From: Patescibacteria group bacterium UBA1406
Lineage (GTDB): Bacteria; Patescibacteriota; Microgenomatia; UBA1406
Direction of reading: 5' to 3'
Assembly (NCBI GenBank): GCA_002305675.1
Contig: DBQA01000006.1
Span: 25,422-89,421 of the forward strand
Length of the DNA stretch: 64,000 nt
Below the pieces are notes generated by a model, which did no database searches, was not told the origin of the DNA, and saw nothing but the letters and a program-made list of their open reading frames with translations. This document shows, in pieces, positions 3,689-19,465 of this stretch (positions within the stretch are counted from its first letter, which is position 1; each line of letters starts with the position of its first letter). The position numbers and the translations under genes were made by a program.

Positions 3689-4432
3689 ATGTCCGTACTT
3701 CTCTATAGTTTTTTGGCCACTTTTGCCGTCAGTCTGGTGTCTTTTGCGGGAGCACTGACCTTTTTGCTGAATGCCAAAAGACTGAACAGGTTTCTGATCC
3801 TCCTTATAGGCCTGGCGGCCGGGACCATGATCGGAGGCGCATTCATCCATCTTATTCCCGAAGCGGTCGAGGAATACAACCATGATCGCACCTTCCTATA
3901 CGTTTTGGTAGGCTTCTCAGCCTTCTTTGCCGTGGAACGGCTCCTGCATTGGCATCATTGCCATCAACAGACCAGAAAAGACCATGTACATACCTTTACT
4001 TACATGACCTTGATCGGGGATACGGTCCATAACTTTCTGGACGGTGTGTTCATCGCGGTGAGCTTTGCGACCGACATCAGGCTGGGAGTCGCGACAACCG
4101 TGGCGGTCATCATGCATGAGATCCCACAGGAGATTTCCGACGTGGGGGTGATGGTCTATGGTGGGTTCAGTAAACGGAAAGCCCTCTTCTTTAACTTCCT
4201 GACCGCGTTGGCGGCAGTGGCCGGAGCGCTGGCCGGCTATTTCCTGACCCTCGATAATTTTATGGGATATATTCTGCCGTTCATAGCCGGGGGCTTCCTG
4301 TACGTTGGCGCTTCGGATCTAATTCCGGAGCTCCACAAAGAACAGAGAACTAATAGATCGTTCTACTCGTTCGTTTCTTTCCTGGTAGGGCTGATCATAA
4401 TGTACTATCTGAGGGTCGTACTCGAAGGATAA
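3689..4432 (+). CDS. ZIP-family divalent metal (Zn/Fe) transporter
   Basis: 247 aa and multi-TM, with a His-rich loop (HWHHCHQQTRKDHVH) and the ZIP signature HNFLDG....IMHEIPQEISD. Confidence 0.85.
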   Translation: MSVLLYSFLATFAVSLVSFAGALTFLLNAKRLNRFLILLIGLAAGTMIGGAFIHLIPEAVEEYNHDRTFLYVLVGFSAFFAVERLLHWHHCHQQTRKDHVHTFTYMTLIGDTVHNFLDGVFIAVSFATDIRLGVATTVAVIMHEIPQEISDVGVMVYGGFSKRKALFFNFLTALAAVAGALAGYFLTLDNFMGYILPFIAGGFLYVGASDLIPELHKEQRTNRSFYSFVSFLVGLIIMYYLRVVLEG

Positions 4433-4475
4433 AAAAATGCATTACCTGAAAGAGATCCAAGTAATGCATTTTTTC
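4431..4475. terminator. Bidirectional intrinsic terminator between convergent genes
   Basis: A perfect 9-bp stem ATGCATTAC (4437..4445) pairs with GTAATGCAT (4461..4469) around a 15-nt loop. It is flanked by an A-run (4431..4437) and a T-run (4469..4474). Confidence 0.55.
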
Positions 4476-4488
4476 ATATACCAGACGG

Positions 4489-4665
4489 TTATTGTCCGAG
4501 CTTCTTGAGGTCTTCCTTGCCCAATATCTTGAAGAGCTTCAGTGTCTGACCGCCCCTCTCTACTTCGGCCTGGGCTGCCTTGCGGCCGTTCTTCATTGTC
4601 ACCACTTTTACCTTATCTTCGGGGACCTCTACGGATTCCTTTAGTTGGACGCTGTAGAATTTCAT
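4489..4665 (-). CDS. Small basic hypothetical protein (58 aa)
   Basis: I prefer the ATG at 4665 (MKFYSVQLKE...), which has GGAGGTG 6 nt upstream. The GTG start in the track (4674) abuts the SD. I recognise no family confidently. Confidence 0.5.
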   Translation of the reverse strand: MKFYSVQLKESVEVPEDKVKVVTMKNGRKAAQAEVERGGQTLKLFKILGKEDLKKLGQ

Positions 4666-4824
4666 CGATTTCACCTCCTCCCTGTGGTTTTTGGATTACT
4701 AAATCCTGATATACGAGAAAGTATATTCATTTTTGCGCGGTTGTCAAGCTGGCGCACAAACCTCTTACATATCTTAAACAGCTTTACCAAAAAAAATTAA
4801 CACGGTTTTAATATATTTCGGCTG

Positions 4825-5283
4825 ATGGGAACGCTAACGGATCTGTCCGATGGTGCGTGGTACCAGCCGAGCGGCGATAGAGAAGTTGAGATAATGACCG
4901 GGCTTCTGGATCTCGGGGCTGCGGATATGGCCGTGGACCTTGGGGCGGGTGACGGGCGTATAGTGATTGCCATGGCCAAGAAAGGAGCTCATGCGGTGGG
5001 ACTGGAAAAGGACGGGCGGCTGGCCGAGATCGCCCGGGCAAACATATACAGGTCCGGGTTCTGGGATTTCGCAGAGATATACAATATCAATTTCTGGGAT
5101 AAGGATCTGTCAGCATTTAACAAGGTGGCATTATTCCAATACCACACGGTCATGGAGCGTCTGGAGCGGAAACTGATGCGTGAGCTGTCCCCGGGTAGCC
5201 TGGTCGTGTCGCATCATTGGCGGTTCCCTGCCTGGCGGGCTGAGAAACAGGTCGGCGACATCTATCTCTACCGAAAGTACTAG
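4825..5283 (+). CDS. Small class I SAM-dependent methyltransferase
   Basis: Motif I is AVDLGAGDGRIVIAMAKKG. It shares its layout and the C-terminal pattern (L.RKL.REL.PG.LVVSH) with the ORF at 55676..56224. Confidence 0.6.
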   Translation: MGTLTDLSDGAWYQPSGDREVEIMTGLLDLGAADMAVDLGAGDGRIVIAMAKKGAHAVGLEKDGRLAEIARANIYRSGFWDFAEIYNINFWDKDLSAFNKVALFQYHTVMERLERKLMRELSPGSLVVSHHWRFPAWRAEKQVGDIYLYRKY

Positions 5284-5404
5284 GGCTGGGACTAATCGAC
5301 TATGTTGGAACTTATTATAGAGAATATCTTTACAAGGATAAAGTCATGGCTTATGCCTGATTATTTTAATTGGGGAAAGAGTGAAAAAAGTCTATAATTA
5401 AACT

Positions 5405-5947
5405 ATGAAACTGTTGAAATCCAACAAACTACCTTTAATAGGAATCTTGGTAATGGTTTCACTGCTTATCGCCCTTACGATATGGAGAGGTCAACAAAAC
5501 TCACTTGCAGAAAACGCTAAAGCTCCAGGGAACGATTGGGACTCGCCTAAAAGAATTGAGGATTACTTCGTTAATGATATGCATATTCCGTCTGATGAAG
5601 CGAAAAGATATGCGGATGTTGGAGTTTCGTTTTATGTGAGAAAAGACAGTACATTGGATGGTATAGTCGGTAATTTAGCCTACTATGGCATTGTCAGGGA
5701 TGAAGAAACTTTACGATACGCTCTGAAGCACACAAATGATACAGCTCCTGGCAAGGAAGGTGCGATTAAGGTAGATGACGAGAGATCGATTGATCTGGCA
5801 GCGTATGGATTATCGAGGAATATGGACACTTGGCAGGTAGCCGATGCTCTGCTCAATAAACCTCATTTCGTCAATCTGACAGAATATACCTATATGTTTA
5901 TGCCTGGTGACCCGAATGATCGAACTGGCCCAAGGGCGAGTGAATAA
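5405..5947 (+). CDS. Hypothetical membrane-anchored protein (180 aa)
   Basis: An N-terminal TM/signal anchor (LPLIGILVMVSLLIALTIW). Codon usage is AT-rich like the island. TATAAT lies 6 nt upstream of the ATG. No family recognised. Confidence 0.45.
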   Translation: MKLLKSNKLPLIGILVMVSLLIALTIWRGQQNSLAENAKAPGNDWDSPKRIEDYFVNDMHIPSDEAKRYADVGVSFYVRKDSTLDGIVGNLAYYGIVRDEETLRYALKHTNDTAPGKEGAIKVDDERSIDLAAYGLSRNMDTWQVADALLNKPHFVNLTEYTYMFMPGDPNDRTGPRASE

Positions 5948-6068
5948 CTTTTTCCCAGATTCGTTGATTCACGCTTTTGAATAATCGTTCATGGGCATTG
6001 ATTAACGCCTGTAAGAACTTTTCCTTTTCGGTCAAGGACGCTTTAGTGAGGTTGGTTTTTACTTTCAT
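5898..6068 (-). CDS. Possible 56-aa ORF or gene remnant immediately downstream of ygjP-like gene
   Basis: Hand-translated as MKVKTNLTKASLTEKEKFLQALINAHERLFKSVNQRIWEKVIHSPLGQFDHSGHQA. Its ATG lies 3 nt after the ygjP-like stop. Its last 50 nt overlap the convergent ORF 5405..5947. Confidence 0.2.
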   Translation of the reverse strand: MKVKTNLTKASLTEKEKFLQALINAHERLFKSVNQRIWEKVIHSPLGQFDHSGHQA

Positions 6069-6071
6069 AAT

Positions 6072-6641
6072 TCAATTCAGCATCAAACCTTTGGATTTGA
6101 GTTCATGGACCAATTCCTTATAGTTAGGCAATACACTTGCCAGTAAGTTCCAATATCTTCGGGAATGGCTAAACTCCTTCAAGTGGCACAGCTCATGAAT
6201 CACAATATAATCAGCCAAATGATCAGGAAGTAAGACGATCCGCCAGTTAAAGTTTAGGTTCTTCTTTTTTGAGCAACTACCCCAGCAAGTTTTCTGGTCT
6301 TTAATAGCCACCTTATTGAACTTGAATCCAAACTTGCGGTTGAAGCGTTTGACCTTTTCTTCTACCAGCTCCAATGCTTTCTGCTTGAGAGTATCACTAT
6401 CCATATCTTCATAGGCTTTAGGCTGATTCTTTTTCAGTCCTTCAAAAAAGTCAATCTTTTCCAATACCCAGCGTGACTTTTGGATCAGATACTGGTCAAT
6501 GGTATTGGATTTGAGGGAATTTGGGACTGTTACTACAAAATCTCCTGTGCAATAGACAGTTAAGCGCATCCTCTTGGCTCTTTTACTGCGTTTGAGGGTA
6601 TAGGCAACTTCCCGATTGTGCAGTTTAATTTGTTTTTGCAT
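6072..6641 (-). CDS. YgjP-like M48/DUF45 zinc metallohydrolase
   Basis: 189 aa with an HExxH motif in IVIHELCHLKEFSHSRRYW. The start overlaps the hsdR stop (TAATG). This family is commonly linked to type I R-M loci. Confidence 0.8.
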   Translation of the reverse strand: MQKQIKLHNREVAYTLKRSKRAKRMRLTVYCTGDFVVTVPNSLKSNTIDQYLIQKSRWVLEKIDFFEGLKKNQPKAYEDMDSDTLKQKALELVEEKVKRFNRKFGFKFNKVAIKDQKTCWGSCSKKKNLNFNWRIVLLPDHLADYIVIHELCHLKEFSHSRRYWNLLASVLPNYKELVHELKSKGLMLN

Positions 6642-9550
6642 TAGAATCGTTTAATGACAACATCAATTAGCCTGTTTAGGTACTTGGAAAAGTCGGATAC
6701 TGTCAATTTCCCTCGGTAGTCTTTCAGAATAATCTCTTGCAGGGTCTTTTTGGCGTTTTTCAAAAACTCCTCACGCTTGGATGAGTTTTGCCAGCCTTCA
6801 TCTAAAATATCAGACAATCGTCTGGTAATGTCTTGCACCAGTTCAATCAACTGTTCCTGTTTGGCTTCTTTGACAAACTCCTGGGAGATGGTAAATAACC
6901 CATACTCACGCAAGTCCAACCCTAACGCTTTGGCTTCATCACCTTTGCTTTTGATGTCGTTAAGAAGATCGTAGTAACGCTTAATTCTTTCTGACAGGTC
7001 AATCTGTTGGTTCTCAAACTCTTTTTTAATAGCCGATAGCTTCTCACTGAATCTGACAAATACAGGGTTTGTATCAACATTGATGGAGATTTCCTGTTTG
7101 ATGATTTTCTCCAAGTTTCGGGCTTTCTCCTCATCATCCATCTTGTCCAGCCGCTCCATTGTATAAAGATCATTAACCTTGAGTTCCCTAAAGTTTCGGG
7201 TAATGCCTTCATAATCAATCCGGTTTTGAATAAGCTGTTTGACCTTTTCGCCATATTCGGCCAGCATTTCATAGTCAACCCCTTGGCTTCTGAACTCTTT
7301 GACAAAAGCCAGATAAAAGCTCGTGATCCACTCAAACTTGCGAAGATACTGGGACAGGAAAGGATCAGGGGACAATATCTCAAACAGAAGCTTTAACCTA
7401 CTGTACTTATCGGCAAAGAATTGTTGTTTTCTTTCATTATCGGTGAATATCTTGAGTGACCGCCTCAAGTTTTCCATTGAAGGATCTTCAATGTTGATGC
7501 CAACAAACAAATCCATAACCTCGCCCATGACTTTGGCAAACTCTTCTTTGAGCTTGTCGATGTTGAGCATGGCCGAATCAACAATACTTTCGTCAAAGTT
7601 CAGAGCATCATAAAGATTTTTGGTTATACCATAGTAATCAATGATCTTGCCGCATCCTTTGTTGGGATAAACTCGGTTGGTGCGTGCGATTGCCTGAAGC
7701 AGGTTATGATCCCGAAGGGGTTTATCCAAGTACATCACCTGCTCAAGCGGAGCATCAAAACCAGTTAAAAGCATGTCGCAGACCAGTAAAAACTTGAGCG
7801 GGCTGTTGGGGTCTTTGAATCGGGCAATAATTTTCTCTCGCTCTCGTTTGTTGGTGTTGTATTCTTTGAGATTATCGCTGTCAGTATTGGGATCGCCCGG
7901 GGAATAAACCACCTCTGACCATTCAGGGGAGGTTAACTGATCAATCATCGCTTTATACTTGGCTGTGGCTTCTCGGTCATAACAAACAATTTGAGCCTTG
8001 AATCCGTTTGGTTCAACATATAGGCGGTAATGCTCAACAATATCTCTGGCTACTGCCTCCATGCGTTTATCCAGTTTAACCAGTGCTTCTTTTTTGCCAT
8101 ACTTTCGCATCAGCAAGTCCTTCTGCTCTGGGGTAAGATCAGTAGTCATCTCGTCAAACTGCTCATCTACTTTCTGCTCGTCTATGAAAAACTTTGACAG
8201 TCGAGCTTCGTAGGTAACAGGCAAAGTGGCTCCGTCATCTATGGCTTGTTGAATCGAGTAGTAATCCAGGTATCGCTCTCCGTCTTGACCAAAGTTTCGG
8301 TGGGTATTGAGGGTCGCCTTATCAATCGGAGTGCCAGTGAAGCCAAAGTAAAAAGCTTGCTGCATTGAAGTCCGCAGGTTTATAGCTGATACTCCTTCAT
8401 TATCTCGGTGGGCTTCATCGGACAGAACAATAATGTTTTCGTTGGGATTTTCAATGTTTGATCCCAGTTCCGTAAACTTCTGGATGGTAGAAATAAAAAT
8501 ACCACGCTCTTGGTTGTAGATTTTCTGCTCCAGATCACGCCTTGAAGTAACCCGAATGACATTTTTGCCTCCACAGTTGACGAAGGTGTCGTATATCTGA
8601 TCATCCAAATCAATGCGGTCAACCAAAACAAACACTTTAGGATTATTAAGTTCCTTATCAAAGCGAAGTTTCCAGGCAGTAAAGAACATGGTCAAACTCT
8701 TGCCTGACCCTTGGGTATGCCAAATTAAGCCTCGTTTCTTTTCGCCTTCCTTGACCCGCTCCACAATTTTGTTAGTAGCCCTATACTGCTGATACCTGGC
8801 AATCTTTTTGATTTTCGCTTCTTTTTCCTGTTCAAAGGTTATAAAGTTGCCGATAATATCCAACAACCTCTCGTGTACCAATAAAGCCGATAGAGTCATC
8901 TCCAGTTGGCCACCAGTTTCTTTTTCAAGCTCCTCATCTCTCCACTGTAAGAAGTATTGGGGTGTGGCATAAGTGGCAGCATAAAAGGTCTTGAGTCCGT
9001 CTGTGGCGACATTAAAGCAGTTTGGCCAGTAGAGCTTCAGGGCGTTCTTCTCATACCGCTTGAGCTGTCCGACTGCCTTGGAATAATCAACTGATTCTCC
9101 GGCGGTTGGGCTTTTGGCTTCAATATCAACCAAAGGCAATCCATTTACAAAGACCATAATGTCCGGTCTGATGTTTTCCAGATTACCTTCAAAGTAAAAC
9201 TGGTTGGTTACGACATAACGATTGTTTTCTGGTTTATCCAGATCAACGACATGGTAATCTCGCATCTTGCCAGTTTGGGGGTCTTTCAGATTAACGCCAT
9301 AGCGGTATAGTTTCAAAAAACCCTCATTAGTGTCGATCTTTTTTACTTCCCGAAGGACAGTCAAAGCTTCATCATCTCCAATATCGTTTATGCGTTTTAT
9401 TGCCTCAAGCAGATGAGGAGTAATCAAATATTCCGTTTCAAACTCGCGAAGTTTAGAAAACTCTTCCGGCTTGATGTACTCATACCCAAGGGACTGGGAT
9501 AAGTATTTAATAATGTGTTTTTCGACTGTATATTGTTCGTTGAATTTCAT
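6641..9550 (-). CDS. hsdR: Type I restriction endonuclease subunit R
   Basis: 969 aa. The N-terminal nuclease-like region contains PDIMVFVNGLPLVDIEAK. Helicase motifs are HTQGSGKSLTMF (Walker A), VLSDEAHR (DEAH) and QAIARTNR (motif VI). Confidence 0.95.
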   Translation of the reverse strand: MKFNEQYTVEKHIIKYLSQSLGYEYIKPEEFSKLREFETEYLITPHLLEAIKRINDIGDDEALTVLREVKKIDTNEGFLKLYRYGVNLKDPQTGKMRDYHVVDLDKPENNRYVVTNQFYFEGNLENIRPDIMVFVNGLPLVDIEAKSPTAGESVDYSKAVGQLKRYEKNALKLYWPNCFNVATDGLKTFYAATYATPQYFLQWRDEELEKETGGQLEMTLSALLVHERLLDIIGNFITFEQEKEAKIKKIARYQQYRATNKIVERVKEGEKKRGLIWHTQGSGKSLTMFFTAWKLRFDKELNNPKVFVLVDRIDLDDQIYDTFVNCGGKNVIRVTSRRDLEQKIYNQERGIFISTIQKFTELGSNIENPNENIIVLSDEAHRDNEGVSAINLRTSMQQAFYFGFTGTPIDKATLNTHRNFGQDGERYLDYYSIQQAIDDGATLPVTYEARLSKFFIDEQKVDEQFDEMTTDLTPEQKDLLMRKYGKKEALVKLDKRMEAVARDIVEHYRLYVEPNGFKAQIVCYDREATAKYKAMIDQLTSPEWSEVVYSPGDPNTDSDNLKEYNTNKREREKIIARFKDPNSPLKFLLVCDMLLTGFDAPLEQVMYLDKPLRDHNLLQAIARTNRVYPNKGCGKIIDYYGITKNLYDALNFDESIVDSAMLNIDKLKEEFAKVMGEVMDLFVGINIEDPSMENLRRSLKIFTDNERKQQFFADKYSRLKLLFEILSPDPFLSQYLRKFEWITSFYLAFVKEFRSQGVDYEMLAEYGEKVKQLIQNRIDYEGITRNFRELKVNDLYTMERLDKMDDEEKARNLEKIIKQEISINVDTNPVFVRFSEKLSAIKKEFENQQIDLSERIKRYYDLLNDIKSKGDEAKALGLDLREYGLFTISQEFVKEAKQEQLIELVQDITRRLSDILDEGWQNSSKREEFLKNAKKTLQEIILKDYRGKLTVSDFSKYLNRLIDVVIKRF

Positions 9551-9551
9551 G

Positions 9552-10157
9552 TTATGATTTTTTAATTCTCTTAACTTCTATAGTTCCGTGATTATTCCTG
9601 TCACGACCAGAATAATAGTAGCCAGTTAAGGTGTCTTTTTCTTCATCGTGTACTAACTTTGCTGATCCTTCATGCATCGCCATGGTTTCGACAGCATCAT
9701 ATTTAGGCTCGTTTCTAAAAAAATAAAAAAGAGCGACCTTGTTATCAATATCACTTCTGCTGAAGTTTTCATGTACACTTACTGATTTTGACTGGTCGAA
9801 AGTGCCACATAATGTAATGTCAGTTGCTGTTTGTTCAATTACCAGTTCTGCTTTTATATCTTTCTGGAAATTATCGTAGGACGACTTAACAATACCTTGC
9901 CATTTTCCGTTAAGGTCATCGGCAATAATTATTCCAATTCTCCTAAAGAATGGATGTTTCCAAAGATAATTGTTGAAAACCCAAAATAAGATGGAATACA
10001 CACCCACAGTAGAGATCGGTAAATCAATGTAAAAAGGTAAAACAATTTGGTTACTTTTCAACAGTTGAGAGATTAAGTAAGAGATGATTACACTAACTGC
10101 TATTAAGATCAAGATAAAGTATGTGAATTTTTTATAGTTATCGCTGTTTATATTCAT
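9552..10157 (-). CDS. Two-TM, beta-strand-rich putative CBASS effector (SMODS-associated 2TM-beta / Cap15-like)
   Basis: 201 aa with two N-terminal hydrophobic helices (FTYFILILIAVSVIISYLISQLL and ISTVGVYSILFWVFNNYLW). A strand-rich C-terminal ~130 aa follows (GKWQGIVKS..ELVIEQTATDITLCGTF..VALFYFFRNEP..LTGYYYSGRDRNNHGTIEVKR). ATGA overlap with the upstream NTase gene. Confidence 0.55.
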   Translation of the reverse strand: MNINSDNYKKFTYFILILIAVSVIISYLISQLLKSNQIVLPFYIDLPISTVGVYSILFWVFNNYLWKHPFFRRIGIIIADDLNGKWQGIVKSSYDNFQKDIKAELVIEQTATDITLCGTFDQSKSVSVHENFSRSDIDNKVALFYFFRNEPKYDAVETMAMHEGSAKLVHDEEKDTLTGYYYSGRDRNNHGTIEVKRIKKS

Positions 10158-11095
10158 AGTGTTAATTTGCCCAAGAAATAATTAGCCATGACATTGATAA
10201 ACTTTATGAGATCATCCAGATTCCAGGTTTTCGGACTGAAAAGTGTATCTTGTTCATTTGCACAAATAAAACCAGTAATCCTTCCGGCCTCTATTGCGTC
10301 AAGAATAAACTGTAATGATTTGAGCATGCAATCCGTATAACTTCCATCAAAGCATGGACTGGTACAGTTGTATAAAAGATTTTCGATAAAGTATGAAGGA
10401 GCTGTTTTCTCATCTAAATGACCATGATCAATTAGATTATTCCGCATGTTTTTGTATATTCTGACCAAATCCTTGAATTTCCCAGAAGTATCAACATTCT
10501 TGGATTCGCAGTTTTCAAGATGCTTTTTGGGGTAGTTGATTATTTCAGTATCATCTGAAGTATCATAGAATCGCATCCCTTCAACAAATCTTTGGTCGGT
10601 ATATGAAAGGAATCTTTTGTAAATCCTGTATTGAAGGCAAGGTACGACATCTGCATCTACCCGATTACTATTTTTTATAACATTCAAACACTTTTTATCC
10701 CATTGAACCTGCCCCTGCCCAAAATCACGCAGTAATGCGTCATAGACATCTTTTTTGAAATGTTTGAATAAGTAAAGGCTGGTACTATGCATTGAATCAT
10801 AAAGAGCTTTTTGTGTAGATTCTAATCCGGTTGTATCAGATTTGAAAACGCTATCAAGTTGAACAACAATATCCACATCACTGTCAAATCTGACATTCGT
10901 GCTGTTGGCGTATGATCCCTGAAGATAAACTTCATATTTGAACTCGGACAAATTAAACGCTTTCTTAATTTCATCAAGAGGTAATTGCCTCCTTAATGCT
11001 TCCTCAATAATTTCTCTTGTCCTCTTAATCTTCTCCATTTCAGTAGGACTGGGAGCGCTTGACCAAGTTTGTAATTGCTGTTCAGAAATAACCAT
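10154..11095 (-). CDS. CD-NTase/SMODS-like nucleotidyltransferase
   Basis: 313 aa with the Pol-beta NTase triad layout: LQGSYANST (G-S), DSDVDIVV (DxD) and a third acidic motif VDADVVPC about 75 aa later. The helix motif PSYFIENLLYNC follows, as in CD-NTase/OAS-like enzymes. Confidence 0.65.
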   Translation of the reverse strand: MVISEQQLQTWSSAPSPTEMEKIKRTREIIEEALRRQLPLDEIKKAFNLSEFKYEVYLQGSYANSTNVRFDSDVDIVVQLDSVFKSDTTGLESTQKALYDSMHSTSLYLFKHFKKDVYDALLRDFGQGQVQWDKKCLNVIKNSNRVDADVVPCLQYRIYKRFLSYTDQRFVEGMRFYDTSDDTEIINYPKKHLENCESKNVDTSGKFKDLVRIYKNMRNNLIDHGHLDEKTAPSYFIENLLYNCTSPCFDGSYTDCMLKSLQFILDAIEAGRITGFICANEQDTLFSPKTWNLDDLIKFINVMANYFLGKLTL

Positions 11096-11099
11096 AAGT

Positions 11100-12230
11100 C
11101 TAATTCACCTCTACCTTTCTATTAAAAATATCGTGCATTAGTCCATTTTTTAGTGCAGTTAGCTTTTCTTTTGTTCGCCTTTCACTAAATAACTTTGCAT
11201 TAACAGCAGATACAGTAGCAACTATCTTTTCTTGTTCGCTTATGTCAGGTAATGGGACATCAAAATCTCTAATTTCTTCTAAATGTAAATTAGTGACTGT
11301 TCCTTGCTTGCTTCTTTTTGTTGCTTGGTTAATTAAATAATCCGATCCTAATACAATTCCCATGTAGTCTGACAAAACTTGATTGTGATCAGGTTTTATA
11401 AGACAAAGGCTGACGAAAATGCTAAACTCGCGATCCCAATTCACTATTTTTGTAATTCCTATTGTTCCATTCTTTGAAAGCAAAATATCGCCTTTTTCTG
11501 GATGACAGCGTTTTATAAGTTCCGCATGTTCTTCTGGGGAAATGTATTTGGTCGTTCCCCAGTTTATTTCAGGATCTTGTATATCGTTAATTCTCAAGAA
11601 GGGCACACCTGTTTCAGTATATTTTGGAGTTCTGTGAGTTCCATCTGTAATTTTAGAAGTAATAGTATTTAGCTTTACAATTTTCCAAGCAGGATTATTT
11701 TTCCCCTTATCAAAAAGATCAGAGATAATACCTTGTTTTAGTACTTCATTATTCTTAATAATTTCATCAGTAATTGAAATTTGTTTATTTAGTATTCGAA
11801 AATATGTTGATACTTTAACTTGAATATCTTGTGGAGGTAAGTTTACTGGTATTCCCATTAAGTCTGATTTGTTTAATTTACCTCTTGTTGTACCTGAAGT
11901 GTATTGCCTCAAATCAGCATAATTTAGGTATTCCTTTAGAAAATCAATGTCAGCATTAGTTACTCTCAAAACATGAGCGTGATTATTGACCCAACTTTTA
12001 CCCTCGATGATATAGGCAGTGTTTGCATATGCCGACCAGTCAGCTCCATCTTCACCAACAAGAAGCAACTTTTCGTCAAAGATGTAATCATCAACATAAT
12101 CAACAATTCCAGTAGCTCCATAATAAGGAATTGTGCCTTTAATCCGTTTTGATCTCGTTACAGGAACTCGTAAGTTATCCAAGTTTTCAACAAGCTCGCC
12201 GAGTTTTGATTGCTGCCAGTTATTTGTCAT
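11100..12230 (-). CDS. hsdS: Type I R-M specificity subunit S
   Basis: 376 aa with two target-recognition halves, each followed by a conserved helical spacer (LPPQDIQVKVSTYFRILNKQI and LPDISEQEKIVATVSAVNAKL). It overlaps the hsdM stop by 11 nt. Confidence 0.9.
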   Translation of the reverse strand: MTNNWQQSKLGELVENLDNLRVPVTRSKRIKGTIPYYGATGIVDYVDDYIFDEKLLLVGEDGADWSAYANTAYIIEGKSWVNNHAHVLRVTNADIDFLKEYLNYADLRQYTSGTTRGKLNKSDLMGIPVNLPPQDIQVKVSTYFRILNKQISITDEIIKNNEVLKQGIISDLFDKGKNNPAWKIVKLNTITSKITDGTHRTPKYTETGVPFLRINDIQDPEINWGTTKYISPEEHAELIKRCHPEKGDILLSKNGTIGITKIVNWDREFSIFVSLCLIKPDHNQVLSDYMGIVLGSDYLINQATKRSKQGTVTNLHLEEIRDFDVPLPDISEQEKIVATVSAVNAKLFSERRTKEKLTALKNGLMHDIFNRKVEVN

Positions 12231-13911
12231 ATCCTAATTCTTTGATGAATGAAGCAACTTTTTGATTAACAGAACTTCGTACTTCTTCCAGTTGTTTCAA
12301 TTCCTGCCAGACTTGCTTAACATCAATTACTTCCTGTTCCTCGTTTCCGTCAATGTATCGCCGGACATTGAGGTTATATTCGTTTTCCTTGATCTCCTCC
12401 ATGTCCACAACTCGGGCGTACTTCTCAATGTCCTGATACTGGTCGTAGGCCTTTATAATCTTGTCTATGTCCTGTTTGCGGAGCGTGTTCTGGTTTTTCC
12501 CTTCCAGAAAATCCCGCTCTGCGTCAATTAACAGTACCTTGTTTTTCTTTTGTTCAGGCTTGTTGTTATTCAATATCCAAACAGCAGCTGGGATTCCTGT
12601 CCCATAAAAGAGTTTGGGAGGGAGAGCGACAATTGCTTCAACAAGATCATTCTTTAATATCTGCTCTCTGATTCTACCCTCACTACCCCCTCTGAAAAGC
12701 ACACCATGAGGCAGGACAATACCAGCTCTGCCATTTGTGTTCATAGATTTGATAATGTGGAGAACAAATGCAAAGTCAGCGTTTTTCTGGGGAGGCAGAT
12801 CGTATCCGTCAATTCTTCCGTATTTGTCATTCCTATACACTTCAAACTCCCAGTCTTTAATGGAATAAGGCGGATTTGCGACCACAATGTCGAAGGTTTG
12901 CAAGTTTCCCGAATCAGTTATAAACTGCGGATTAGCCAAAGTATCACCCCTGCGGATGTCAGCACTGTCCAAGCCATGTAAAAACATATTGATTTTGGCT
13001 ATGGCAAATGTGCCGATGTTGATTTCCTGTCCGTAAAGGTAAAGCGTTCGGGCTATGGTTTCATTAACTTTGTCTTTGAGGTAGTTATAAGCTTCAAGCA
13101 AGAAACCACCTGATCCAACTGTGGGATCATAGACATGATCCTTCTGGTGAGGCTTGAGGATACCGATGATGATACGCTCAACTTCTCGTGGGGTATAAAA
13201 CTCTCCACCTTTTTTACCTGCATCTGCGGCAAACTGTTTGATCAGATATTCGTAAGCGTCACCCAACAGATCAGAGCTAATGTAGTTACTGCCAAAGTTA
13301 TACTGGGAGAAGTGGTTGATTAAGCGTTGCAGGGTTTCATTGGGGAATCGGTCTTTATTGGCAAAGTCCAGATCATCAAAGATTTTATCCAGTTTGGGGC
13401 TATTAACATTGGTGAGCTTGTCAAAGATTTCGTTGAGTTTCTTGCCGATATTTTCCGAAGTATTTTCAATCACCGACCATTTGCATTCTTTGGGAACTTG
13501 GAAGCGGTGGTTGTAATCGGCTTCGGCAAGGGATGTGTCCTTGAACTCCTCTAATACTTTTTGGTATTCCTCATCCCAGACATCGCTTATCCGTTTATAA
13601 AAAAGCAGACCAAAGATGTACTTTTTGTAGTCAGAGCTGTCTATCTTGCCTCGGAGAATATCGGCACTTCGCCATAAAAACTGTTCAAGCTGGGACAGGG
13701 TTAGTTTGCTGCCCATTTTGGCGATTATGACTTCAATATCTTCCTTGCGGTATTTGCGGTCTTTGCGTGGTCCAACCCGAAGTGGTACAAGTTCACCGCT
13801 TTTTTCCCAGTTACGAAGGGTATCCTGATGTATTTTGAAGAGCTTGGATACTTCACCGATTGTTAATAGGTCAGGGGTTTCTTCAAGAACTTTTTTTGCT
13901 ATATCTGTCAT
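12220..13911 (-). CDS. hsdM: Type I R-M N6-adenine DNA methyltransferase subunit M with an N-terminal MerR/excisionase-type HTH
   Basis: 563 aa. The HsdM N-domain contains LWRSADILRGKIDSSDYKKYIFGLLFYKRISD. The SAM motif is DPTVGSGGFL and the catalytic motif is VVANPPYS. The extra N-terminal ~65 aa is LLTIGEVSKLFKIHQDTLRNWEKSGELVPLRVGPRKDRKYRKEDIEVI. Confidence 0.95.
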   Translation of the reverse strand: MTDIAKKVLEETPDLLTIGEVSKLFKIHQDTLRNWEKSGELVPLRVGPRKDRKYRKEDIEVIIAKMGSKLTLSQLEQFLWRSADILRGKIDSSDYKKYIFGLLFYKRISDVWDEEYQKVLEEFKDTSLAEADYNHRFQVPKECKWSVIENTSENIGKKLNEIFDKLTNVNSPKLDKIFDDLDFANKDRFPNETLQRLINHFSQYNFGSNYISSDLLGDAYEYLIKQFAADAGKKGGEFYTPREVERIIIGILKPHQKDHVYDPTVGSGGFLLEAYNYLKDKVNETIARTLYLYGQEINIGTFAIAKINMFLHGLDSADIRRGDTLANPQFITDSGNLQTFDIVVANPPYSIKDWEFEVYRNDKYGRIDGYDLPPQKNADFAFVLHIIKSMNTNGRAGIVLPHGVLFRGGSEGRIREQILKNDLVEAIVALPPKLFYGTGIPAAVWILNNNKPEQKKNKVLLIDAERDFLEGKNQNTLRKQDIDKIIKAYDQYQDIEKYARVVDMEEIKENEYNLNVRRYIDGNEEQEVIDVKQVWQELKQLEEVRSSVNQKVASFIKELGYDK

Positions 13912-14088
13912 ATCAATCTTAATTTAATTCATCCATAGTTGGATGATAGTTGGTAAAGAGTATAGCTGTTCTTTTACCAAAATGCAAGAGTAATGTTTCA
14001 TAGGTATTCATAGGTTTGATCTACTTTTCCATTTGACACGAGCCTGCTCTCTGCTACGCTTACGATATACATATAAACAATTATTTAG

Positions 14089-14241
14089 ATGGATATGACA
14101 ATTAAAAGGAAAGTTATTAGGAAACGAAAAACAAGAAATACTCCAAGGCTACTCTCCCAGTCCGAGATCATCAAAAAGATCAACCGCCACACTCGAAAAA
14201 GTTACCAGTTATTCGAGTTATTGCTGTGGGAAAAAGATTGA
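14089..14241 (+). CDS. Possible 50-aa basic ORF immediately upstream of the integrase
   Basis: Hand-translated as MDMTIKRKVIRKRKTRNTPRLLSQSEIIKKINRHTRKSYQLFELLLWEKD. Its stop lies 1 nt before the integrase ATG. It is below the track cutoff. It may be an Xis-like or regulatory peptide, or spurious. Confidence 0.25.
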   Translation: MDMTIKRKVIRKRKTRNTPRLLSQSEIIKKINRHTRKSYQLFELLLWEKD

Positions 14242-14242
14242 T

Positions 14243-15202
14243 ATGGAAAATAACCTGATTGTTTATAAACATGGTCAATTTAATCCTCTGGAATGGCCAC
14301 AGAGGCTGTTTGAACACTTGGATGTGTCAGATACGACCAGAATAGAGTACGGAGCGAGAATTAACCTTTTTATTGATTTTATTAAGGAGAAAGGCTTTAA
14401 CCGCAACAGCTACCTTGAATATAAGGGACACCTGTCCCGCAGGACTGACTTTTCTGTAAGCACCAAAAACAAATACCTGATTGTTGCCAGAGTCTTTTGT
14501 AAGGAACTGCACCGGCAGGGATATTTGCCAGTTGATATTACCCAGAACATTAAATCCTTCAAGCAGTCCAGGAAACACAAAAAGGATGGACTGACAGAAG
14601 GAGAAATCCAGAAAATACTATCTCACTTTCAGACAGTTGAGAACAGTAAAGATACCAGTCGAGCCAAGGCGTTACTTTCACTGTTGATTCTGCAAGGACT
14701 TCGGCAAATTGAGATAGTTCGCCTGAATGTGACTGAAATTGATATAGTTTCCCAAACAGCTTTTGTGCAAGGTAAAGGCAGGGATGACAAGGAAGTAATT
14801 GATCTGCACCCGGTCACAGTATCAGCTCTCAAAGATTACATTAGAAAGTGGAAAGTGGCAGACGGAGCATTATTCACCAGCACAAGCAATAACAGCAAGC
14901 ACCACAGACTAACCACACGATCCATCCGTAACATCATCAACCCCTTATTAAGAAGTCTTGAGATTGATAAAACAGTACATGGATTCAGACATTACTTCAC
15001 CACCAAACTTATCAAGTCTTATAAAGGTGATCTTTTAACAGTCGCCCAGTACACCAGACACAAGAGTCTGGAAATGCTTCAGATCTACAACGACACTATC
15101 AAACACAAGGCTGATTTACCCAAATATTACCAGACTTTTGAGAGCGTCAATTTTGACCAATTTGAGCCTTCCATTTCCCATAATTTACATTACAAGAAAT
15201 AA
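14243..15202 (+). CDS. Tyrosine site-specific recombinase/integrase
   Basis: 319 aa with an N-terminal SAM-like core-binding region. Catalytic-domain motifs are LILQGLRQIEIVRL (Arg), HGFRHYFTT (H-x-x-R) and TRHKSLEMLQIY (His...Tyr). Confidence 0.85.
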   Translation: MENNLIVYKHGQFNPLEWPQRLFEHLDVSDTTRIEYGARINLFIDFIKEKGFNRNSYLEYKGHLSRRTDFSVSTKNKYLIVARVFCKELHRQGYLPVDITQNIKSFKQSRKHKKDGLTEGEIQKILSHFQTVENSKDTSRAKALLSLLILQGLRQIEIVRLNVTEIDIVSQTAFVQGKGRDDKEVIDLHPVTVSALKDYIRKWKVADGALFTSTSNNSKHHRLTTRSIRNIINPLLRSLEIDKTVHGFRHYFTTKLIKSYKGDLLTVAQYTRHKSLEMLQIYNDTIKHKADLPKYYQTFESVNFDQFEPSISHNLHYKK

Positions 15203-15207
15203 AAACT

Positions 15208-15894
15208 ATGACTGACAAAAGACAACCAAAAACAGACCAACAACCACTCATCAAAACAGATGAAACCCAAACCAAGCAGGGAAAGCGGTTTGAGCTAATG
15301 ACCAAAAACGGATATAGACTGGATGAGGTTGTCAGTGCCTTACAGAAATCAATCAGGAGAGGACAGGAACAAAGGGCTGTCTATTGGGCTTATGAGATGT
15401 TTGAATCGGGGTATATCAAGTATCTGTGGAGGAGATTATCAGTTATAGCTCTGGAAGACATAAGCCTCGCAGACCCATTCGCTGCGGTACTGGTCAATTC
15501 TCTGGCTCAATCCAGTGAACGGATCAATCAGAAAGACAAGATTGAAGTACTTCACCCTGGAATGGCTGTGATCTACTTGTGCCGAGCCAAAAAGTCCAGA
15601 GAGGTGGATTATTGTTTGGAAATTGTCGAACACCAGAGAAAATCTGGTGAAAAATTAAAACTGGAAGATTATGAATTGGATAGCCACACCGAGGAAGGTA
15701 AAAGAAAGTTAAGAAAACAGGCTAAAGAACAAGGAATTAGTTATGAGCGATTGGTCGATGAACAGTTCTATTACGAGGGAGCGTTACTGGATAACTCTGT
15801 ACCAGTTATGGATGACAAATGGAAGAAGGAAGTTTGGGAGTTAAGGAAGCTGGATAAAGGAAAAATTGATAATCAGCATAAAACAGAGAAATGA
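15208..15894 (+). CDS. Hypothetical protein with an MgsA/RarA C-terminal-like helical domain (no AAA+ module)
   Basis: VVSALQKSIRRGQEQRAVYWAYEMFESGY...LWRRLSVIALEDISLADPFA resembles the MgsA_C pattern (S.L.KSIRGSD.DAALYW.ARM...GEDP..I.RRL...A.EDIGLADP). Confidence 0.45.
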   Translation: MTDKRQPKTDQQPLIKTDETQTKQGKRFELMTKNGYRLDEVVSALQKSIRRGQEQRAVYWAYEMFESGYIKYLWRRLSVIALEDISLADPFAAVLVNSLAQSSERINQKDKIEVLHPGMAVIYLCRAKKSREVDYCLEIVEHQRKSGEKLKLEDYELDSHTEEGKRKLRKQAKEQGISYERLVDEQFYYEGALLDNSVPVMDDKWKKEVWELRKLDKGKIDNQHKTEK

Positions 15895-16040
15895 GGCTAT
15901 TCACCTTGGAAGTACAGGGTGACTGGTATATTTTATGCAAGGAGAGCTAAAGGCTATCATCCATGCAACATACAGGGTGGGAGCTCTTTTGTGCATGGAG
16001 CAGTTATAGGTCATAATTAGTATAATTAGAGCATATTGAT

Positions 16041-16838
16041 ATGTATATTGAACCGATTCCTATTGAAATTGAGGATAATAAAGTCTTTGCACAAATAGCT
16101 TATCTTTTAGATGGAACAAGCATTATCAATGAAATACTTGAAATTAGGGAATCATTCAAAATCCAGAAGCCATTTGATGCTGATAATCGTAATGCTTGGA
16201 AAACGCACTTATTAAAACTGGCTGGATACGACCTCAATGAATATAAGGATATGAAGAAAATCCATGCAGGTGATCCCAACTTGGATAATAAAGAGTGGGA
16301 AAAACTGAAACGATGGTCAGTAGAAAACGAGCAACATCAACTACAATTTGTACAACTTCAAAAACAGTTCTGGGAAAAAATTGCCCATGTAAGGCGACTG
16401 TATCACTATCCTCCTCTTTATGACGATGTAATTATCCAAGCGGTTTTATTTAACAAGGTATCTCATTTCAAATCCGCTTATGCACGATTAACCCATGGGA
16501 ATGAAACCGATCTGCTTATAGGAGATGAAAACGATATTGTACATAAAATCATTTTGACTCCTTACGCCACCAGAGAGGATGTATTAGCTGCGTTTGATGA
16601 GATTAAAGGAGAGGAAACAAAAAAAGAGTCACAATTAACTGATCCGCCTTTTTCTCCTAAACTGGAAGCGGATACAAGGAACAAAATTAGAGATTTCCGT
16701 AAGTGGTACTGGATGAACTATAAAAACAATCCAGACAAGGTAGGTTATCGTAAGTTGGCAAAATTAACTGGCATGAATATGGAAACAGTCAGGAGTGGAA
16801 TCAGGTCATATTCAGACTTCATTAGCTTCAAAGCATAG
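16041..16838 (+). CDS. Hypothetical protein with a probable C-terminal HTH
   Basis: 265 aa. The C-terminal GYRKLAKLTGMNMETVRSGIRSY looks like a helix-turn-helix. No family recognised. Confidence 0.45.
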   Translation: MYIEPIPIEIEDNKVFAQIAYLLDGTSIINEILEIRESFKIQKPFDADNRNAWKTHLLKLAGYDLNEYKDMKKIHAGDPNLDNKEWEKLKRWSVENEQHQLQFVQLQKQFWEKIAHVRRLYHYPPLYDDVIIQAVLFNKVSHFKSAYARLTHGNETDLLIGDENDIVHKIILTPYATREDVLAAFDEIKGEETKKESQLTDPPFSPKLEADTRNKIRDFRKWYWMNYKNNPDKVGYRKLAKLTGMNMETVRSGIRSYSDFISFKA

Positions 16839-16907
16839 TGTTGGTTTAGCGACACCCAATAATAACAACTTATAGAGTGCCATAAACCTTTATATCATCT
16901 TCGTAGT

Positions 16908-17117
16908 ATGAAGATGAATAAGAAATCGCAAAAACTATCTTCTCCCAAATGGCTGACAGAAGAACTTCAATTCAAGGTTAGGTCTGTTTTTGAGCCAAAG
17001 TACAATCGCCCCCTTTCTGATGACGAAGTTATTACTATTGCTGAAAACCTGGCTGATTTTATGGATCACTTTTTCAAGTTCAAATGGAGATTAGACTATG
17101 CAAATCAAACAAAATAA
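16908..17117 (+). CDS. Hypothetical small protein (69 aa)
   Basis: ORF only. It is in a co-directional array with its neighbours and overlaps the next ORF by 20 nt. Confidence 0.35.
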   Translation: MKMNKKSQKLSSPKWLTEELQFKVRSVFEPKYNRPLSDDEVITIAENLADFMDHFFKFKWRLDYANQTK

Positions 17118-17346
17118 TCAGGAAGAATACTCGACCAAAGATTTAGGTCACGCAACAGCCTTACTTACTGCCGGAATCAGGCTCATCCGCCTTGAAAAGG
17201 AATTCAATTTTTACTGGTTTGTTTTTGACAGCCAGGGTGCGGAAGAAATAACAAACGCATACCTCTCTGGAGAATTAAGACAACCAGTCAAGCAATACAG
17301 TATGAATATGCGTTTTCTAAAAGATCGTTTATTTGCAGAACGATAA
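17098..17346 (+). CDS. Hypothetical small protein, DUF5659-like
   Basis: The pattern YSTKDLGHATALLTAGIRLIRLEKE.NFYWFVFDS resembles a phage/CPR small-domain family (DUF5659, from memory). Weak call. Confidence 0.4.
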   Translation: MQIKQNNQEEYSTKDLGHATALLTAGIRLIRLEKEFNFYWFVFDSQGAEEITNAYLSGELRQPVKQYSMNMRFLKDRLFAER

Positions 17347-17371
17347 CTATTTTTTAATAGATGAATATTAT

Positions 17372-17722
17372 ATGGAATTAAGAATTAAAATCTACGCTCT
17401 CGAAACAGACTTATCGCTTCAAGCCAGAAGTGACAATATCCTTGCCTTTGTTACTTGGATTTTCAAGACAGACATTGGTGATATTAAAATTAAAGGCGGT
17501 ACTATAAGGAGAAAAGAGTTCGGATCTAAAAGCCTTTTATCCTATGATGTCCCAGCAATTAAAACCAGACATGGATATAACAAGGCTTTCTTCATGGACA
17601 ATAAGGAATTATTTTTGAAATTAAGTAACTTCACCATTCAAAAATACTGCGAAGAAAGCGGTGAACCAGTTAGCGGTTTTTCAAATATCGAAGATATTAA
17701 CCCCGATGAAATACCAATATGA
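17372..17722 (+). CDS. Hypothetical protein (116 aa), possibly SpoVG-like fold
   Basis: I prefer the ATG at 17372 (MELRIKIYAL...) over the TTG at 17333. The alternating-strand N-terminus (ILAFVTWIFKTDIGDIKIKGGTIRRKEFG) is loosely reminiscent of SpoVG. Low confidence. Confidence 0.35.
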   Translation: MELRIKIYALETDLSLQARSDNILAFVTWIFKTDIGDIKIKGGTIRRKEFGSKSLLSYDVPAIKTRHGYNKAFFMDNKELFLKLSNFTIQKYCEESGEPVSGFSNIEDINPDEIPI

Positions 17723-17738
17723 TAAAAGCTATAATGAA

Positions 17739-17822
17739 AGTAACTATTATAGTTACTATTAAGAGTAACAATAGTAACGGTGACTATATTGTTAAAGTAG
17801 TTAGTATCTGGTAAGAGGTAAC
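17739..17822. promoter_or_regulatory. GTAAC-motif cluster and palindrome upstream of the serine recombinase gene
   Basis: A 19-bp palindrome AGTAACTAT-T-ATAGTTACT at 17739..17757. Three further GTAAC copies at 17765, 17774 and 17818. All lie in the 111-nt gap before the recombinase ATG. Confidence 0.35.
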
Positions 17823-17833
17823 AATATAAAGAT

Positions 17834-19381: not shown

Positions 19382-19392
19382 ACGATCCCCCA
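19322..19392 (-). tRNA. tRNA-Gln (anticodon TTG)
   Basis: Hand-folded. The acceptor TGGGGGA pairs with TCCCCCA (U1-A72). The anticodon arm is GCGGC-CTTTGGA-GCCGT and the T arm is CGGGG-TTCGAAT-CCCTG. The discriminator is G. CCA is not fully encoded. Confidence 0.9.
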
Positions 19393-19429
19393 AATATGCC
19401 TGACTGAATCAGGTATATTTTATTATCTG

Positions 19430-19459
19430 TTGCTTGCAATTACAACCCCCGTGTATAAT
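19430..19459 (+). promoter_or_regulatory. Putative sigma70-type promoter of corA (TTGCTT-18 nt-TATAAT)
   Basis: The -35 TTGCTT is at 19430..19435 and the -10 TATAAT at 19454..19459. The ATG at 19466 lies 6 nt after the -10, implying a leaderless transcript. Confidence 0.4.
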
Positions 19460-19465
19460 TTATTC

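Follow-up and report, generated by a model that had tools for sequence, protein, structure and literature searches.

A CdnE-Cap15 gene pair between hsdS and hsdR

We analysed a stretch of 64,000 nucleotides from Patescibacteria group bacterium UBA1406 (GenBank assembly GCA_002305675.1, contig DBQA01000006.1, positions 25,422 to 89,421; this whole stretch is hereafter referred to as the window), in which two adjacent minus-strand genes encode proteins of 313 and 201 amino acids. An initial annotation, made from the sequence without database searches, had placed two open reading frames (ORFs) of these lengths here and had proposed that they specify a cyclic-oligonucleotide synthase and a membrane-disrupting effector, together forming a minimal cyclic-oligonucleotide-based anti-phage signalling system (CBASS). 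Both ORFs are present (Table 1), and the stop codon of the first overlaps the start codon of the second by four nucleotides (ATGA). With 1003 homologs of the 313-residue protein at E ≤ 1e-10 and 120 homologs of its 201-residue partner at E ≤ 1e-5, they are genuine genes and not chance ORFs. As detailed below, the first product is a CD-NTase (cGAS/DncV-like nucleotidyltransferase) of clade E and the second is Cap15; the genes are therefore called cdnE and cap15 here.

The pair occupies the slot between hsdS and hsdR of a type I restriction-modification (R-M) operon. The products of this operon are, in order, MerR-HsdM, HsdS, CdnE, Cap15, HsdR and a YgjP-like metallopeptidase, and every junction between the genes either overlaps or measures 1-4 nucleotides. 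The hsdS stop codon lies 4 nucleotides ahead of the cdnE start, with a Shine-Dalgarno-like sequence (AGGTAGAGGTGA) upstream of cdnE within the 3′ end of hsdS. On the other side, hsdR starts 1 nucleotide past the cap15 stop codon.

The 313-residue protein is a clade-E CD-NTase

The initial annotation had read the 313-residue protein as carrying the G-S / DxD / D layout of a cyclic-oligonucleotide synthase with a Pol-beta fold. The four motifs that it quoted are all found in the translated sequence: LQGSYANST at residues 58-66, DSDVDIVV at residues 71-78, VDADVVPC at residues 146-153 (75 residues beyond the DSDVDIVV motif) and PSYFIENLLYNC at residues 233-244. The catalytic set consists of G60-S61, D73, D75 and D149, which correspond to the G-S and the [DE]h[DE]...[DE] triad of the Pol-beta nucleotidyltransferase (NTase) core. 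In an alignment of 44 homologs S61, D73, D75 and D149 are invariant, as are N187, H192 and W291, and G60 is kept in 41 sequences. The proposed layout thus stands, its catalytic residues being intact here and kept in the homologs.

Profile searches assigned the protein to the CBASS cyclases over nearly its whole length. The PADLOC 'oligonucleotide-cyclase' model PDLC00788, a CBASS model, gave 8.2e-95 over residues 1-307; upwards of 20 other PADLOC cyclase models matched as well. CD_NTase_C (PF26305) is among the precomputed domains of P0001, a database protein identical to the CdnE of the window. The nearest structures by sequence (HMMER) are RmCdnE, EfCdnE, EmCdnE, ClCdnE and LpCdnE, all of clade E; the entries matched were 6E0K (RmCdnE, 7.5e-47), 7X4C, 6E0M, 7X4A and 7X4F.

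The AlphaFold2 (AF2) model of the protein, obtained with a predicted local distance difference test score (pLDDT) of 94.7 and a predicted template-modelling score (pTM) of 0.89, shows a full-length bilobed CD-NTase composed of the NTase core and a C-terminal helical domain. When this model was compared with solved structures by Foldseek, the 14 best matches were all CdnE, with query-normalised TM-scores of 0.66-0.85 (the 12 close CdnE structures lie at 0.74-0.85). The best of them was RmCdnE (6E0K; E of 5e-27, TM-scores of 0.83/0.88, 37% identity), and CdnD, CdnC, CdnB and animal cGAS ranked below the CdnE structures. The CD-NTase/SMODS-like identity suggested at the outset therefore holds, with the PADLOC cyclase model matching full-length and CdnE structures coming first by both sequence and fold.

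We also considered that the protein might not be a signalling enzyme at all, but an MNT/KNTase-type antitoxin or a poly(A)- or CCA-adding nucleotidyltransferase encoded next to an unrelated membrane protein. It does score above the cut-off of Pfam NTP_transf_2 (26.8 against 21), matches Polbeta weakly and is hit by the model of the archaeal CCA-adding enzyme at an E value of 4.5e-6. However, these matches cover just residues 41-88, the Pol-beta core that such enzymes share, and the CCA-adding model attains 25.7 bits against a cut-off of 281 bits, whereas the CD-NTase models and the CdnE structures match over the full length and the partner is Cap15, with no HEPN protein. Best profile hits to such enzymes had been named beforehand as an outcome that would overturn the original assignment; the profile and fold searches returned CBASS cyclases as the best matches, and neither MNT/KNTase antitoxins nor poly(A) polymerases appeared among the 50 top Foldseek matches. 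The PADLOC, PDB and Foldseek results effectively refute the antitoxin and the CCA/poly(A) readings, to which we attach a negligible probability. The 313-residue protein is a clade-E CD-NTase (CdnE).

The 201-residue partner is the effector Cap15

Both Pfam domains of Cap15 were found above their cut-offs in the 201-residue protein, Cap15_CD_rec with 89.2 bits (cut-off 31.2; 3.3e-25) and Cap15_TM with 31.8 bits (cut-off 28.2; 2.3e-7). The '2TM effector' models of PADLOC matched it full-length, the best at 6.3e-54, and the single PDB sequence match was Cap15 of Y. aleksiciae (7N34, 2.7e-5).

The AF2 model (pLDDT 91.8) has helices at residues 8-35 and 48-63, followed by eight beta-strands over residues 84-200. 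Kyte-Doolittle analysis gave one strongly hydrophobic segment at about residues 11-30, with a maximum of 2.59 at residue 20. These helices, with the Cap15_TM match, agree with the two N-terminal helices that had been described for this protein. The strand-rich C-terminal domain that had been described is likewise present, as an eight-stranded barrel, but it spans about 117-120 residues and not about 130. The lack of a barrel had been named as an outcome that would speak against the effector; the C-terminal domain is modelled as a beta-barrel, and it superposes on that of 7N34 in Foldseek with a target-normalised TM-score of 0.84 and a root-mean-square deviation of 2.4 Å over 120 columns. The Cap15 identity is thus upheld by both domains and by the superposition on a solved structure, and the 201-residue partner is unambiguously Cap15, an S-2TM-beta effector.

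Cap15 has been shown to sense uracil-containing cyclic dinucleotides in its barrel, to oligomerise and to disrupt the inner membrane (PMC10419184). The protein of the window resembles Cap15 of Y. aleksiciae (7N34/7N35) in having two transmembrane helices and, at the C-terminus, a beta-barrel of the kind that serves as a cyclic-dinucleotide receptor, and the two Pfam families that it matches were built around that protein; the identity between the two barrels is about 22%.

The pair is a two-gene type I CBASS

To classify the system, we scanned all ORFs of at least 110 amino acids in a low-GC island around the pair, from about 4.8 to 19.4 kb of the window, with Pfam and PADLOC. They comprise the R-M subunits, the YgjP-like protein, an integrase, an MgsA_C-like protein, a serine recombinase and proteins of unknown family, and none of them encodes Cap2/Cap3 (E1/E2/JAB), HORMA/TRIP13, mCpol or DAC (diadenylate cyclase). 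The earlier description of a minimal type I CBASS lacking sensor and regulatory genes is consistent with this result. Having no ancillary CBASS genes in the island, the pair is a two-gene type I CBASS, which is type I-B in the nomenclature of the Staphylococcus schleiferi system.

The pairing itself is conserved. We examined 88 related loci, the set returned by our pattern scans, of which 71 have space downstream of the cyclase gene. In 57 of these 71, the next gene downstream of that for CdnE encodes Cap15. Counting was limited to relatives of the Cap15 found here, which makes 57 a minimum.

A working type I-B CBASS composed of Ssc-CdnE03 and Cap15 has been characterised in S. schleiferi (Banh et al., 2023; PMC10686824). 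A structured RNA from the phage (cabRNA) activates Ssc-CdnE03 to make cGAMP, upon which Cap15 permeabilises the membrane (PMC10686824). Like the pair of the window, this operon has just two genes, with Cap15 encoded after a clade-E CD-NTase and no ancillary genes; it is also drawn flanked by a type I R-M system (PMC10686824). The two differ in that the S. schleiferi enzyme makes cGAMP, whereas the lid residues of the window enzyme predict a uracil-containing product (see below).

The protein identities obtained from sequence, profile and fold, the intact catalytic residues, the conserved pairing, the lack of ancillary genes and the tight packing were established by the sequence analysis. Taken together with what is known of the characterised homologs, they make it very probable, in our judgement, that cdnE and cap15 form a CBASS of type I (I-B), carried inside an R-M operon on a mobile island, with Cap15 killing through the membrane in response to a signal from CdnE. 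Characterised homologs served as our guide to the trigger on infection, the nucleotide made, the oligomerisation upon ligand binding, the killing of the cell and co-transcription. By analogy with them, CdnE would make a cyclic dinucleotide upon phage infection, and this would bind the C-terminal beta-barrel of Cap15. The ligand-bound Cap15 would then oligomerise in the inner membrane and break it, so that the infected cell would die ahead of phage release, as in abortive infection. Embedded in the R-M operon, the CBASS pair would give the island a second defence layer that is mechanistically independent of the first.

Several observations weigh against this assignment. The Pfam SMODS model (PF18144) reached only 20.5 bits on CdnE against a gathering score of 26.5, although some close CdnE homologs do carry it. 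The cut-offs of NCBIfam CBASS_cyclase_a and CBASS_cyclase_b are unmet (50.6 against 200 bits for CBASS_cyclase_b), and the best NCBIfam match, DS2_2 (NF053871), gave 279 bits against an equivalog cut-off of 350 bits. As to the effector, S-2TM-beta proteins can also have the opposite polarity, in which the ligand inhibits them, as it does in Panoptes, and the two polarities are not distinguishable by sequence. As to transcription, promoter-like sites at positions 5800-14400 were not enriched, numbering 28 as compared with 22.4 ± 4.1 in shuffled sequences, which neither points to nor argues against a promoter of the pair's own.

Since SMODS fell below its gathering score, the CdnE assignment rests on the CD-NTase-specific models and on the fold; we treat the sub-threshold SMODS and NCBIfam models as narrow or older ones and do not take them as evidence against CD-NTase membership. 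The DS-2 system, composed of a phospholipase, a cGAS-like cyclase and a DAC, is itself a CBASS variant, so the DS2_2 match agrees with the other evidence on the enzyme. DS-2 differs from the window system in its phospholipase effector and its additional DAC; as the DS2_2 score was also below 350 bits, assignment of CdnE to that family was dropped. In the region scanned for promoters we also found 9 terminator-like sites (5.8 ± 2.3 in shuffled sequences, again no enrichment), none of them at a gene junction, and we consider it likely that the pair is co-transcribed with the R-M operon.

The question of polarity bears on an inverse mode of signalling, in which CdnE would produce its nucleotide constitutively to restrain the Cap15-like effector, and phage sponges or nucleases would deplete the nucleotide and thereby release the effector to kill the cell. 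Such a mode has a precedent in the Panoptes system (OptS/mCpol and OptE/2TM-beta), the effector of which belongs to the same S-2TM-beta family as the Cap15 of the window and is inhibited by its ligand even though the Cap15 ligand residues are conserved in it (PMC12657218, PMC12657230). However, the synthases described for such systems are mCpol enzymes and minimal DACs, neither of which is a CD-NTase. The synthase of the window is a full-length CdnE; the island scan described above detected neither mCpol nor DAC; and the S. schleiferi and Y. aleksiciae Cap15 operons signal positively. Membership in Panoptes was thus rejected, the synthase being of the wrong class, and we regard inverse signalling by this pair as very unlikely. 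The positive type I-B CBASS is the reading that we retain in what follows.

A predicted uracil-containing signal from the lid residues of CdnE

The product of a CdnE can be approached through the residues of its nucleotide-binding pocket, and we compared these in the window enzyme with those of characterised relatives by HMMER alignment. N187 aligns with N166 of RmCdnE, the uracil-reading residue of lid 1, and W291 aligns with the Trp of the (R/Q)xW motif of lid 3 (W267 of RmCdnE), which contacts the donor base. C278 corresponds to C252 of RmCdnE and to a Glu of EfCdnE, at the position of the clamp partner, and K289 corresponds to R279 of EfCdnE and E265 of RmCdnE, at the Arg/Gln position of the clamp. 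Residues 278, 289 and 291 belong to the donor pocket. Among the 44 homologs, position 278 is Cys in 39 and Glu in none, while position 289 is variable, with Lys in 22.

EfCdnE, ClCdnE and LpCdnE are cyclic di-UMP synthases encoded in operons that carry Cap15 (PMC10442399). The window system resembles theirs in being a type I CBASS of CdnE and Cap15, in the Asn of lid 1 and in the conserved Trp of the C-terminal loop (PMC10442399). In those enzymes, however, the (R/Q)xW motif is clamped to a Glu and purines are excluded, whereas the window family has Cys (39 of 44 sequences) and a variable residue at the two positions. The combination of Cys278 and a variable residue 289 indicates that the purine-excluding Glu-Arg clamp of the di-pyrimidine synthases is absent.

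The pocket instead resembles, as far as the alignment tells, that of RmCdnE, the cUMP-AMP synthase of Rhodothermus marinus (6E0K/6E0L), with which the window enzyme shares the GS/DxD/D residues and the equivalences N166/N187, C252/C278 and W267/W291; it differs from RmCdnE in an overall identity of just 37% and in having Lys289 in place of Glu265. The predicted product is a uracil-containing and probably mixed pyrimidine-purine cyclic dinucleotide similar to cUMP-AMP, a prediction that we hold with about even confidence. The lid pattern (Asn187, Cys278, Trp291 and no Arg/Gln-Glu clamp) thus offers a prediction, of a cUMP-AMP-like signal, that could be tested at little cost. As for the trigger, two basic residues on the N-terminal spine helix of CdnE, K22 and K24, are conserved, being mostly Lys or Arg among the homologs. 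They are compatible with a nucleic-acid ligand, without showing one.

Nested and free-standing relatives of the pair

To see how the pair relates to the R-M operon, we compared close relatives, defined as loci with at least 59% CdnE identity and usable flanks (n = 14 including the window). The pair directly follows hsdS of a type I R-M system in 9 of the 14. The same MerR-HsdM-type cassette was found in the window and in loci L005, L006, L090, L093, L095 and L096, while L094 matches its upstream half; the six-gene composite cassette recurs in several metagenomic contigs, with CdnE identities of 60-81%. In locus L002 the pair lies in the same slot between the S and R genes of an unrelated R-M system, HsdM and HsdR being only 28% and 30% identical to those of the window as against 63% for CdnE and 77% for Cap15. 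Conversely, L006 has an HsdM and an HsdR that are 80% and 71% identical to those of the window but an HsdS of only 26% identity, which indicates swapping of the specificity subunit around the retained pair. Evidently, the central block is exchanged independently of the outer genes of the operon.

More distant CdnE-Cap15 pairs (31-40% identity) are also associated with type I R-M genes: one is nested between hsdM and hsdS (L036, 9986-11459), and two, oriented like hsdM, lie directly upstream of it (L061, 914-2396; L069, 3902-5384). These three share 34-36% identity with the pair of the window, and they show that such pairs are associated with type I R-M at more than one insertion point.

Other defence modules are known from such places. 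The prrC gene of Escherichia coli lies in the same slot, the order of genes being prrA/hsdM-prrB/hsdS-prrC-prrD/hsdR. PrrC, embedded in the type IC locus EcoprrI, is activated once the T4 protein Stp inhibits EcoprrI (PMC12707154). The hsdS-hsdR junction has been described as probably a hotspot at which defence systems recombine, as exemplified by DarTG2 in the RRDM island of enteropathogenic E. coli (EPEC) (PMC12255303), and TgvAB is embedded in a type I R-M system of Vibrio cholerae, in VPI-2 (PMC11411939). According to a systematic survey, the genes embedded in type I R-M, BREX and DISARM systems number in the thousands, and 96.7% of them have the same orientation as their hosts. The window fits this pattern in that its type I R-M operon houses a second defence module oriented like the operon itself; the slot is the very one that DarTG2 occupies. 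The window differs in that the embedded module is a CBASS and that a helix-turn-helix (HTH) domain is fused to HsdM instead of being a separate RptR. CBASS thereby joins PrrC, DarTG2 and TgvAB as modules that use the hsdS-hsdR hotspot.

The precedent of PrrC suggests a guard arrangement, in which CdnE-Cap15 would be silenced by, or would monitor, the surrounding R-M system and would fire when Ocr, ArdA or a Stp-like protein disables HsdMSR. The position of the pair in the hsdS-hsdR slot, the proportion of close relatives that directly follow hsdS, the recurrence of the pair lineage in that slot of an unrelated R-M system (L002) and the distant pairs placed between M and S or abutting hsdM would all suit such an arrangement, as would the junctions of 1-4 nucleotides or overlaps, which suggest a single transcript. 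If true, it would be the first cyclic-nucleotide system that guards a restriction system. However, 5 of the 14 close relatives (L003, L004, L091, L092 and L097) are free-standing, on a conjugative element, beside serine recombinases or in genomes of the candidate phyla radiation (CPR). These pairs are full-length and of the same subclade, from which it follows that the pair does not need an R-M system. In a neighbour-joining tree (without support values) they are intermixed with the nested pairs, which speaks for an autonomous module that enters and leaves R-M operons. Furthermore, of 45 loci flanked by 3 kb or more of sequence on at least one side, only 8 show a type I R-M gene at a distance of up to 1.5 kb; the S-R slot is a generic hotspot, which holds DarTG2, TgvAB and other cassettes as well; and the characterised CdnE03 is triggered by phage RNA, not by inhibition of R-M. 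We therefore consider a guard function improbable and favour an autonomous type I-B CBASS lodged in the operon.

Both protein families are well characterised, and precedents for the two-gene architecture, the clade and the R-M neighbourhood are in the literature. Modestly new are a pair whose cyclase shares 37% identity with the closest solved CdnE and whose effector shares 22% with solved Cap15, the recurring six-gene composite cassette, and the single instance in which an unrelated R-M system has the pair in that slot. The value of the locus lies mainly in the annotation and census of a well-understood defence system, and it provides a concrete system for asking whether such embedding means co-regulation alone or cross-talk between restriction and abortive infection.

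Relatives of the window CdnE with 59-64% identity occur in an Archaeoglobaceae archaeon (L001), in Gammaproteobacteria (L002) and in CPR phyla/Patescibacteria (L003, L004 and L097). Their presence in archaeal and gammaproteobacterial metagenome-assembled genomes as well as in Patescibacteria implies cross-domain horizontal transfer. Five distant relatives (34-37%) were found in predicted viral contigs of IMG/VR (L085-L089), three of them with Cap15 directly downstream. In L094 (8184-10181), cap15 is followed by genes for proteins of 284 and 380 amino acids without a Pfam match, at the place expected for hsdR; the R subunit has been replaced, unless the contig stops short of hsdR.

The surrounding operon and island

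Table 1. Genes and other features of the island, in window coordinates
Feature	Coordinates	Strand	Description
cdnE	10154..11095	-	313-aa clade-E cGAS/DncV-like nucleotidyltransferase (CD-NTase); from profile, structure and fold
cap15	9552..10157	-	201-aa S-2TM-beta effector; from Pfam, PADLOC, PDB and AF2/Foldseek
hsdM	12220..13911	-	Type I R-M methyltransferase with N-terminal MerR-type HTH; first operon gene
hsdS	11100..12230	-	Type I specificity subunit; Methylase_S 1.1e-32, two stretches
hsdR	6641..9550	-	Type I restriction subunit; TIGR00348 hsdR 553 bits; HSDR_N, SWI2_SNF2 and T1R_D3-like domains
YgjP-like metallopeptidase gene	6072..6641	-	PF01863 1.5e-44; overlaps hsdR stop; last operon gene
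Tyrosine integrase	14243-15202	+	Island gene
MgsA_C-like gene	15208-15894	+	Island gene
Large serine recombinase	17834-19381	+	3′ end overlaps tRNA-Gln on the opposite strand
tRNA-Gln	19321-19392	-	Overlapped by 3′ end of the serine recombinase ORF
152-aa ORF	4825-5283	+	Left island edge; PADLOC mad2 1.2e-12, profile positions 269-395 of 492
265-aa ORF	16041-16838	+	Island; no Pfam or PADLOC match
129-aa ORF	17333-17722	+	Island; no Pfam or PADLOC match

The R-M genes surrounding the pair are clearly recognisable. HsdM contains N6_Mtase (5.8e-111) and HsdM_N (3.9e-26) and exceeds the cut-off of TIGR00497 hsdM with 282 bits; at its N-terminus it carries an HTH of the MerR/HTH_17 type (residues 15-65; MerR_1, 2e-9). 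By analogy with the separate RptR of the EPEC island in which DarTG2 is embedded in R-M, this HTH could autoregulate the R-M/CBASS operon. Upstream of hsdM no notable operator-like repeat was seen except for a 10-nucleotide imperfect palindrome at 14191-14218. The fusion of a MerR-type HTH to HsdM is also kept in the cassettes L090, L093, L094, L095 and L096. The YgjP-like gene directly follows hsdR in L006, L036, L061, L069, L090 and L096 as well, that is, in both related and unrelated type I R-M systems; its product perhaps acts in HsdR turnover or in restriction alleviation.

The operon is part of the low-GC island, which extends from about 5200 to 19400 of the window with a GC content of 33-43%, against about 50% in the flanks. 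Within the operon, the GC content at third codon positions is 0.25 for hsdS, 0.34 for cdnE and 0.34 for cap15, as against 0.47 for hsdM, 0.48 for hsdR and 0.48 for ygjP. This step suggests that the middle block (hsdS, cdnE and cap15) has another history than the outer genes.

Between the edges of the island (4300-6200 compared with 19200-19600) no att-type exact repeat of at least 12 nucleotides was found, and a search of the window against Rfam returned only tRNAs. The divergent integrase, the MgsA_C-like gene and MerR-HsdM are similarly arranged in L094, from which it appears that the island may be one conserved mobile unit. The 152-residue ORF at the left edge, the GC content of which is host-like, matches only the middle part of methyltransferase models and, judging from this partial match, may be a methyltransferase remnant.

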